In this document: positions 58,769 through 60,215 of the stretch, in pieces | How positions within the stretch are numbered: the stretch's first letter is position 1 | Layout of the letters: each line of letters opens with the position of its first letter | Assembly (NCBI GenBank): GCA_963790475.1 | Contig: CAWBOS010000012.1 | Span: 32,001 to 96,000, forward strand | Direction: 5' to 3' | DNA length: 64,000 nt | Source: an uncultured delta proteobacterium | GTDB lineage: Bacteria; Desulfobacterota; RBG-13-43-22 | The notes under the pieces: generated by a model | What the model was told of the DNA's origin: nothing | Databases searched by the model: none | Seen by the model: only the letters and a program-made list of their open reading frames with translations | Translations under genes and position numbers: made by a program

Positions 58769-60215
58769 ATCCTTTGATGACTCCTAATGGTCTCAACCTG
58801 GCCACCTTTTTGGCAATACCGGCCTGATGGATCACCTCGACCACTTGGGCCACATCCTTATAGGCCTCCGAGATTTCTTCGACGATGGTCCCCAAGCCGG
58901 CCCCTTGCACATATATTCCCCGGTCCTCCATCTCCCGGACTACAGACCGGCCTCTGGCAGCCTTCTTAGCAGCCTGGCGGCTCATGACCCGGCCGGCGCC
59001 ATGACAGGCACTGCCGAAAGTCTCTTGCATAGCCCGATCGGTTCCCAACAAAACATAAGAGTAACGGCCCATGTCACCTGGTATCAGGACCGGCTGCCCT
59101 ATCTCCCGAAAGGCTGGTGGGATCTGAGGATGATTGGGAGGGAAAGCCCGGGTCGCCCCCTTGCGGTGCACGCATAAAGATTTCATTAGACCATCCACCT
59201 GGTGATCCTCAAATTTCGCAATATTATGGCACAGGTCATAGATCAGTTCCAGTTGCAGAATCTTGGGACTGATCCGCAAAACCCGTTCCAGGGTTTCCTG
59301 AACCCAATGGGTAATAATCTGCCGGTTGGCAAAAGCGAAGTTGGCGGCCGCAGCCATAACCGCCAGATATTCCCTCCCTTCGGAAGAGGCGATTGGGGCG
59401 CAGCACAATTGTCGATCCGGTAATTCGATGCCATATTTGGCCGTGGCCGGGATGAGTTTTTTTATGGCGTCGTCACAAACCTGGTGTCCGAGACCCCGAG
59501 ATCCGGTATGGACCATTACCGTGACCTGTTGGTCAAAAAGGCCCAGTTGGCTGGCCGCTTTCGGATCGTAAATCGTTTCCACATAACCTACTTCGACAAA
59601 ATGATTACCCGAACCGAGGGTGCCTAATTGATCTTTTCCTCGTTCCATGGCCCTGGCCGAAACCAGATCCGGCCCGGCCCCCTCGATACAACCGCCTTCT
59701 TCGATATGTTCCAGATCTTCCTGGCCCCCGAACCCTTGGCTCACAGCCCACCGCGCACCCAGAGCCAACACTTTTTCCTGATCCTTGGCTGTAAGTTTAA
59801 AATCCTTGCGGTGTGAACCCAACCCGGAAGGGATATTCCGAAACAGGGCCTGGACGATTTCCTTGACCCGGCCTTCGATCTCTTTGCGGCTCAACCCGGA
59901 GCGCAGCAACCGCACCCCTCAATTGATGTCGTAGCCCACCCCGCCCGGCGAGACGACCCCTTGGTCAGGATCAAAAGCCGCAACGCCTCCAATAGGGAAA
60001 CCGTACCCCCAATGGATATCCGGCATGCCCAACGAGGGGCCGACAATTCCCGGCAGCCAGGCGACATTGGCCACTTGCTGCAGGCTTTGGTCCTGCTTTA
60101 AATCGGAAAGCAGGGCCTCGGACACGAAAACCAGGCCATCGGTCCGCATCTTCCCCTCCCGGGGGATCCGGAAACGGTAATCATCTATTTTTTCAATTTT
60201 TATTTTCTCGCTCAT
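58767..60215 (-). CDS. rtcB: RtcB RNA ligase with in-frame TGA at codon 99 (candidate selenocysteine)
   Basis: [61 protein letters not shown]. Both track ORFs are in the same frame. Confidence 0.92.

Follow-up and report, generated by a model that had tools for sequence, protein, structure and literature searches.

A conserved in-frame TGA at the manganese-bridging cysteine codon of bacterial RtcB RNA ligases as a candidate selenocysteine codon

The RtcB gene and its in-frame TGA

The window analyzed here, a stretch of 64,000 nucleotides from an uncultured delta proteobacterium (assembly GCA_963790475.1, contig CAWBOS010000012.1, positions 32,001 to 96,000), carries on its minus strand a gene for the RNA ligase RtcB in which a single in-frame TGA occupies the codon of the active-site cysteine. 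This codon is a candidate for decoding as selenocysteine (Sec), and it is followed by a hairpin that resembles a Sec insertion sequence (SECIS). The features concerned are the following.

58767..60215, minus strand: gene for the RtcB 3'-phosphate/5'-OH RNA ligase (PF01139), 482 codons plus a stop when read through one in-frame TGA
59919..59921, minus strand: in-frame TGA at codon 99, the candidate Sec codon, aligned with Cys98 of Pyrococcus horikoshii RtcB and Cys122 of the human enzyme
59885..59905, minus strand: SECIS-like hairpin TGCGCTCCGGGTTGAGCCGCA, within the RtcB coding sequence
60387..60815, minus strand: archease, the RtcB activation factor, directly upstream of RtcB (PF01951, 146.7 bits)

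Under translation table 11 the RtcB gene is broken into two open reading frames (ORFs) of 109 and 382 amino acids that share one frame; when the TGA is read as Sec, a single protein of 482 amino acids runs from 60215 to 58767 and is terminated by a second TGA, which is the true stop. This protein matches the Pfam RtcB family with 579.7 bits (cut-off 27) over profile positions 1-426 of 426, and among solved structures it aligns with Thermus thermophilus TTHA1785 (PDB 2epg, E 2e-183) and P. horikoshii RtcB (1uc2, E 2e-173). In a profile search of the whole genome (572.7 bits, with one TGA inside), it was the sole RtcB gene found. The minus-strand letters around the TGA are GGC TAC GAC ATC AAT TGA GGG GTG CGG.

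In P. horikoshii RtcB, Cys98 is a ligand of both Mn2+ ions; His234 and His329 bind the first ion with it and Asp95 and His203 the second, and His404 is the residue that becomes guanylylated (PMC10630183). Residues D96, H205, H236, H330 and H405 of the window protein are identical in the alignment to D95, H203, H234, H329 and H404 of P. horikoshii RtcB, and the set of ligands for the metal and guanosine triphosphate (GTP) is kept, with the TGA codon, at position 99, in the place of Cys98. Judged by its sequence, the window gene is an RtcB ligase, and GTP- and Mn-dependent, archease-stimulated ligation is predicted for its product. Replacement of the cysteine by alanine abolishes ligase activity in the enzymes of Escherichia coli, human and Pyrobaculum aerophilum, and the residue has been seen oxidized in aerobically purified RtcB (PMC10630183); a 2025 paper terms it 'the invariant active-site cysteine' and describes it as oxidation-sensitive (PMC12263435). 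These accounts agree with the sequence-only reading of this DNA, which had described a cysteine that bridges Mn ions and is sensitive to oxidation. The same reading had placed the TGA at this metal-binding cysteine and had joined the two in-frame ORFs into a 482-residue RtcB with its other motifs intact and archease adjacent, and both claims are borne out by the letters (59921-59919, minus strand), the Pfam match and the alignment with Cys98.

The NCBIfam model for intein-containing RtcB (NF038162) gives a match to the window protein that splits exactly at residue 98; a Sec-specific RtcB model is absent from NCBIfam. Cys98 of P. horikoshii RtcB is an intein splice junction (PMC4150793). Because this junction and the TGA recoding fall on the same residue, the residue 98/99 site (window positions 59919-59924, minus strand) appears to be a hot spot both for the insertion of inteins and for Sec recoding, each an unusual event.

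Conservation of TGA at the cysteine codon

The site codon could be scored in 181 of 182 RtcB loci, and it is TGA in 130 of them, TGC in 37 and TGT in 14 (RtcB genes with TGA are called Sec forms below, and those with TGC or TGT Cys forms). The pool consists of 30 loci from relatives, 32 TGA rows and 40 stop-free rows from a sample of the phylum, and the loci of a pattern scan. With 40 relatives searched, RtcB was present in 37 of 41 genomes; the site codon is TGA in 19 of the relatives' loci and TGC or TGT in the other 11, and their RtcB is from 91% down to 61% identical to that of the window, in alignments that are unbroken across residues 1-482. In the phylum sample, RtcB was found in 326 of 401 genomes, and one internal TGA is present in 47 of the best 150 RtcB rows (the sample holds 184 more), from at least 13 families. 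Every one of the 32 rows with one TGA that were followed further has it at this codon, and all 40 stop-free rows have TGC or TGT there.

In the pattern scan, a degenerate motif containing TGA was sought in one genome per prokaryotic species; at least 120 stretches matched and 80 loci were returned, all of which are RtcB genes with TGA at this codon. Their record titles name Thermodesulfobacteriota or deltaproteobacteria, Nitrospirota (including Ca. Magnetobacterium casense), Acidobacteriota and Binatia, together with Eisenbacteria, Gemmatimonadales and Myxococcota-type labels. The pairing of TGA and Cys in homologues to which the sequence-only reading had pointed is therefore present, in 130 loci with TGA as against 51 with TGC or TGT. 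Since the same codon is TGA in so many loci, from more than a hundred species of bacteria, sequence comparison identifies the TGA at RtcB codon 99 as a conserved feature and not a lesion, and the earlier argument that a nonsense change would hardly land on this cysteine by chance is superfluous, because conservation settles the point.

That a nonsense mutation or a miscalled base has inactivated RtcB in this organism is thus very improbable. Such a lesion would be in keeping with the contamination of the genome, which is about 10%, with a broken second copy of selA, and with three of the 80 pattern-scan loci (L087, L114 and L116), in which the frame ends 133, 86 and 324 codons past the TGA while the locus continues; these three may be decayed copies or assembly errors. 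In most pattern-scan loci the frame stays open after the TGA, for 378-383 codons in 59 of the 80, and in a further 18 it is cut by the end of the locus. The unbroken alignments with relatives and the presence of only this RtcB gene in the genome also argue against a pseudogene. The contig from run X1 spans 59686-60027 with zero differences, and no variant at 59919-59921 is among the differences listed, beyond which lie 27 more rows; this is a comparison of assembled contigs, not raw reads, with a run that is possibly the source sample, so that the agreement is not independent. The check on read support for the TGA, to which the sequence-only reading had also pointed, is thus favorable at the level of the assembled contig. 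Contig depth in the metagenome runs X2 and X4 rises at 59910-59977 to spikes of 165 and 256, compared with 4-10 nearby, which is uninformative on the window organism because the conserved RtcB motif is common to many organisms.

It is similarly improbable that translation stops at the UGA and restarts, and that the resulting pieces of 98 and 382 amino acids cooperate without the cysteine. Gene callers do open the 382-residue ORF at a GTG two codons past the TGA, but this start codon is not conserved, being GTG in 26, GTC in 15, GTA in 7 and GTT in 3 of 51 Sec forms. Moreover, in each lineage the break coincides exactly with the Cys codon, although a two-piece enzyme might be divided at any point of a loop, and the inactivity of the Cys-to-Ala enzymes mentioned above speaks against a ligase that works without this residue.

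Selenocysteine machinery and the genetic code of the genome

The Sec machinery that the sequence-only reading had called for is encoded in the genome. Profile searches detected selA (629.5 bits), selB (390.6 bits) and selD (394.1 bits, with an in-frame TGA of its own), each above its curated cut-off, and the selB gene is the sole full-length copy, the other matches covering the GTPase part only. A single tRNA with the anticodon TCA, typed as SeC by aragorn, lies on contig C6. There are two copies of selA (G000:C13:443305-444664 and G000:C20:490-1848); the intact copy is on a very short contig and the second is split into four frame pieces with one TAA, the broken copy being either a decayed duplicate or the product of an indel-rich assembly, and this may be connected with the indel lesions that the sequence-only reading had noted in the window.

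One gene for an FdhA-type formate dehydrogenase alpha subunit and five FlpD/MvhD genes contain one in-frame TGA each, and with selD they raise to at least seven the number of genes, besides RtcB, that belong to known selenoprotein families and have a TGA in frame; the genome is rich in selenoprotein genes. In the FdhA gene and the five FlpD/MvhD genes, a hairpin begins 13-16 nucleotides past the TGA, as it does in RtcB, and the loop in FdhA is GGTCT; the TGA of selD is likewise followed by a hairpin. The positions of these genes in G000 are C10:596304-597575 (FdhA), C15:541426, C15:276474, C6:161481, C13:145167 and C10:34576 (FlpD/MvhD), and C10:1969676 (selD).

TGA ends 541 of the 1617 stop-to-stop frames of at least 400 codons, and outside the Sec genes it serves as a normal stop codon. 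That TGA has become a sense codon throughout the genome (NCBI tables 4 or 25), for which the in-frame TGA itself and nothing else can be adduced, is hardly conceivable in view of this count, of the TGA that terminates RtcB itself, and of the restriction of the in-frame TGAs noted, besides that of RtcB, to genes of known selenoprotein families.

UGA is recoded to Cys by selC-like tRNAs in some anaerobes. Reading of the RtcB UGA as a residue other than Sec, either Cys delivered by such a tRNA or Trp or Cys delivered by a near-cognate one, would yield a Cys-type enzyme or one with a substituted residue and would accord with the Cys found in all 51 non-TGA homologues, and the residue at codon 99 is assigned from sequence. 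This possibility is nevertheless unlikely, because the only tRNA with a TCA anticodon is of the SeC type, selA, selD and one full-length selB are present along with the other in-frame-TGA selenoprotein-family genes, and the hairpin in RtcB suits the SECIS model of the SelB type. The sequence-only reading had proposed Sec or recoded Cys at residue 99; sequence, machinery and conservation favor the former, and the latter keeps only a small share of the probability.

Among relatives with TGA-RtcB, selB is above the cut-off in 17 of 19, and the two misses are in genomes that are 85% and 76% complete. It is also found in 14 of 16 relatives with stop-free RtcB; the Sec machinery is thus necessary, and not predictive of the Sec form. 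In a genome of the same genus with a Cys (TGT) RtcB, the only selB match, at G008:C30:180205-180834, is partial and covers model positions 1-210, which may point to an erosion of the Sec trait there.

The hairpin downstream of the TGA

The hairpin of the window, TGCGCTCCGGGTTGAGCCGCA, lies at 59905-59885 on the minus strand and is composed of a 4-base-pair upper stem (GCTC/GAGC), one bulged C, a 3-base-pair lower stem (TGC/GCA) and a 6-nucleotide loop (CGGGTT). Its stem begins 13 nucleotides and its loop 20 nucleotides from the TGA, the latter being the distance given by the sequence-only reading. The model for bacterial SECIS elements (bSECIS) has an apical loop of 3-9 nucleotides, an upper stem of 4-16 base pairs and G among the first two nucleotides of the loop (PMC13188914), together with 16-37 nucleotides between the UGA and the loop and a minimum free energy no higher than -7.5 kcal/mol (PMC13188914, Fig. 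2 legend). The hairpin conforms to this model in loop length, stem, spacing and G position, with G at position 2 of the loop followed by another G.

Constraint on the RNA was assessed by comparing the codon entropies of 51 Sec forms with those of 51 Cys forms, all from one phylum, the groups being set solely by phylum and by codon 0. CGC is the only codon at Arg+6 in the Sec forms (50 of 50, 0 bits), as against 1.5 bits in the Cys forms; Leu+9 has 1.12 bits in Sec as against 2.17 in Cys forms, and Arg+11 has 0.67 as against 2.23. Ser+10 is AGC in 43 of 44 Sec forms (0.16 bits) and in 10 of 12 Cys forms (0.82 bits). Arg+3, which lies in the same genes outside the hairpin, has 2.37 bits in Sec and 2.4 bits in Cys forms. 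Synonymous codon choice is therefore frozen at codons +6 to +11 in the Sec forms only, and the codons before the TGA and past +12 are equally free in both groups.

In loci with the hairpin type of the window (87 distinct sequences), 85.1% of the cells are paired, compared with 24-47% when the partners are slid. This type occurs in three pairing registers (GAGC-C-GC, GAGCGC and GGAGCGC), and one fixed structure consequently under-counts the pairing. A different helix of 16 base pairs stands at the same place in the Nitrospirota-labelled RtcB genes; it is 84.9% paired, and its covariation comprises six pairs with 16 cells changed on both sides, a score that 0 of 500 shuffles reach. A third type, found in eight sequences with Binatia, Eisenbacteria, Gemmatimonadales and Acidobacteria labels, is 88.9% paired and has two doubly changed pairs. 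That such unlike sequences and peptides all give a stem-loop at one distance from the UGA is the pattern expected of a SECIS, and not of protein constraint alone. Fold energies are also lower in the Sec forms, with a minimum free energy of -14.9 in 114 Sec forms as against -11.7 in 49 Cys forms (p = 0.0012).

Several observations weigh against the reading of this hairpin as a SECIS and of codon 99 as Sec. The energy of the window hairpin is borderline for the bSECIS model, at -6.9 kcal/mol for the bare 21 nucleotides and -8.1 kcal/mol within 31 nucleotides (relatives reach -9.3 in L036 and -15.4 kcal/mol in L023), so that the SECIS check to which the sequence-only reading had pointed is favorable in loop, stem and spacing and equivocal in energy. 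The window hairpin folds no better than shuffled sequences (z -0.58 for 21 nucleotides), and neither does a stretch of 66 nucleotides (z -0.30); the evidence for the hairpin is for this reason comparative. Within the hairpin type of the window, covariation is not significant, with one pair, two doubly changed cells and a score reached by 28 of 500 shuffles, and the support for this type is therefore conservation, which is inflated by kinship. When fold energies are compared with those of synonymous recodings, the contrast between Sec forms (z -1.96) and Cys forms (z -1.13) is modest (p = 0.046), the difference in energy between the groups being blurred in part by nine Cys forms that retain the hairpin. 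An Rfam scan of 59700-60000 returned no family match, and none of the RNA runs listed contains the stretch. Finally, the insertion of Sec as the residue at codon 99, in which confidence is high, is deduced from sequence.

Two other candidates in this region were set aside. The fold of the 66-nucleotide stretch offers an alternative hairpin, the codons of which vary between close relatives, and a hit to ivy-DE RNA at 59856-59967 on the minus strand (19.5 bits against a gathering score of 41.4, E 0.38) was taken as chance.

Exchange of selenocysteine and cysteine during evolution

A FastTree phylogeny was built from 143 of the 181 loci (92 Sec and 51 Cys forms) after removal of the site columns, leaving out duplicates as well as genes in which fewer than 370 codons follow the site or fewer than 90 precede it. 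On this tree at least 14 changes between the Sec and Cys states are needed, eight of them forced by well-supported branches, as against a mean of 42 with shuffled labels, and comparison of the sequences thus indicates that the two forms have been exchanged repeatedly. In the genus of the window, the Cys forms L021 and L024 are nested among Sec forms, and an intact hairpin persists in one of the two; families f14 and f46 repeat this pattern. In all, nine Cys forms (L024, L045, L177, L185, L180, L184, L187, L188 and L199) retain the hairpin of their Sec relatives as a 'fossil SECIS', located at codons +5 to +12 past the Cys codon.

Because the nested Cys forms still carry the hairpin, a repeated reversion from Sec to Cys is envisaged, and the fossil hairpins suggest that these conversions are recent. 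This direction of change is a deduction, as the tree is unrooted and its sampling is biased, the Sec forms coming from a TGA-specific scan and the Cys forms from one phylum; the tree itself is used for the repeated exchange only. The hairpin is nearly identical in RtcB genes labelled Acidobacteriota and in those of Thermodesulfobacteriota.

Proposed role of selenocysteine in RtcB

The explanation that accounts for these findings with high probability is that the gene encodes a full-length RtcB in which Sec replaces the Mn-bridging cysteine and is inserted through SelB and a SECIS. As envisaged in this model, the hairpin that starts 13 nucleotides past the UGA would recruit SelB with Sec-tRNA(Sec), and codon 99 would be decoded as Sec and not as a stop by the ordinary bacterial SECIS mechanism. 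A selenolate would then bridge the two catalytic Mn2+ ions in place of the thiolate. A selenol has the lower pKa (PMC13188914, sections 7 and 8), and the selenolate, with oxidized forms that are more easily re-reduced, would keep an oxidation-sensitive site working or allow it to be re-activated. Resistance to, or recovery from, oxidative inactivation is accordingly proposed, with moderate confidence, as the advantage of Sec in RtcB, a rationale reached from the pKa of the selenol and by analogy with the Sec ligands of Ni in [NiFeSe] hydrogenase and of Mo/W in formate dehydrogenase, and an altered metal affinity is perhaps a further one.

The protein resembles the characterized RtcB/RTCB ligases (P. 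horikoshii PH1602, T. thermophilus TTHA1785, E. coli RtcB and human RTCB) in its full profile match, its catalytic residues and the adjacent archease, and differs from them at the 'invariant' cysteine, where the window gene has TGA and the enzyme, if Sec is inserted, would have a selenolate bridge. With the genes that use SelB and a SECIS (FdhA, SelD and MvhD/FlpD) it shares the pairing of UGA and Cys, the machinery, and a hairpin 13-16 nucleotides past the UGA with G among the first two loop nucleotides; RtcB is, however, a nucleotidyl-transfer enzyme of RNA repair and not an oxidoreductase. Direct coordination of a catalytic metal by Sec, which is proposed here for RtcB, is a feature of [NiFeSe] hydrogenase (Ni) and formate dehydrogenase (Mo/W), where the metal site and chemistry are different: RtcB holds two Mn2+ ions on one bridging ligand and catalyzes guanylylation and phosphodiester formation, which are not redox reactions. 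The advantage proposed for Sec in [NiFeSe] hydrogenases is a guard against irreversible over-oxidation (PMC13188914, section 7). The recoding system of TGA-RtcB is ordinary and the features of the RtcB family are kept; what is new is the key metal ligand, very probably Sec.

A further comparison is offered by P. horikoshii RtcB engineered to contain Sec98 (Haruna et al., 2014) by means of UAG and an EF-Tu system, which underwent spontaneous peptide cleavage (PMC4150793). Because this enzyme cleaved itself, there are RtcB proteins that do not tolerate Sec at this position, which counts to some extent against the present proposal. The residue was in that case placed artificially at the same position, whereas the TGA forms found in bacteria have been conserved in nature with their frames intact and so would seem to tolerate Sec; tolerance may depend on the bacterial sequence context. 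In metazoans, PYROXD1 (and thioredoxin) protects RTCB against oxidative inactivation of the active-site Cys. The likeness lies in the problem that is met; protection there is by a partner protein, and in bacterial RtcB the remedy would lie in the residue itself.

Neighboring genes

Besides the PF01951 match, the archease gene scores 125.4 bits against NF001617, slightly below the cut-off of 126. The other genes around the archease-RtcB pair are as follows.

57323-57793, plus strand: circularly permuted YpsA (SLOG) family protein, near the archease-RtcB pair
57804-58616, minus strand: class I S-adenosylmethionine-dependent methyltransferase, directly downstream of RtcB on the same strand
60932-62107, minus strand: NrfD-type membrane protein, upstream of the archease-RtcB pair

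Annotation and implications

In the protein collection, the closest TGA-containing relatives occur just as truncations of 382 amino acids (P0005, P0009, P0016, P0023 and P0029), which are named 'tRNA-splicing ligase RtcB', start at a Val/Met two codons past the TGA and are without the N-terminal 100 residues. Of the best 120 matches in the collection, 16 correspond to loci studied here at 97% identity or more; Cys-form loci (TGC or TGT) account for all 15 that are full-length, and the one that matches a TGA locus is a truncation. The 382-residue calls are a systematic mis-annotation. As gene callers truncate the protein in this way, RtcB looks defective in many anaerobe genomes, and the counts of selenoproteins in these phyla are too low.

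TGA-RtcB is very probably, on the sequence comparisons above, a real, widespread and uncatalogued selenoprotein. A May 2026 review (PMC13188914) presents its Table 1 of prokaryotic selenoproteins as the most comprehensive inventory. RtcB, PF01139 and RNA ligases are absent from the 119 entries (families and subfamilies) of this table, and no Sec-Mn site is found among its families. The word 'ligase' has 0 occurrences in the main texts of this review and of the papers on deep-Sep (PMC12013277) and BSepDB (PMC13326102), the supplements, which possibly list RtcB, being outside the scope of this count. Among full-text literature matches, judged by titles and the openings of abstracts, there is no report of a natural Sec-RtcB, and the paper on the engineered variant, seen in excerpt, is the sole relevant one. 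It is also reasonably probable, though less securely so than the recoding itself, that RtcB constitutes a widespread uncatalogued Sec family with a Sec-Mn site, that it is the first selenoenzyme of RNA ligation or repair, and that at least three types of SECIS hairpin have evolved or diverged in it.

The majority of the selenoproteins known so far are, or are believed to be, redox enzymes (PMC13188914, section 7). If the proposal is true, selenium biology reaches RNA repair and the ligation of tRNA and mRNA, and the cysteine of RtcB can no longer be called 'invariant'. The natural pair of Sec and Cys orthologues, only 8-11% apart within one genus, provides a direct test of whether selenium shields the metal site from oxidation, and Sec would give bacterial RtcB, within the enzyme itself, a means of meeting the oxidative inactivation against which animals use PYROXD1.

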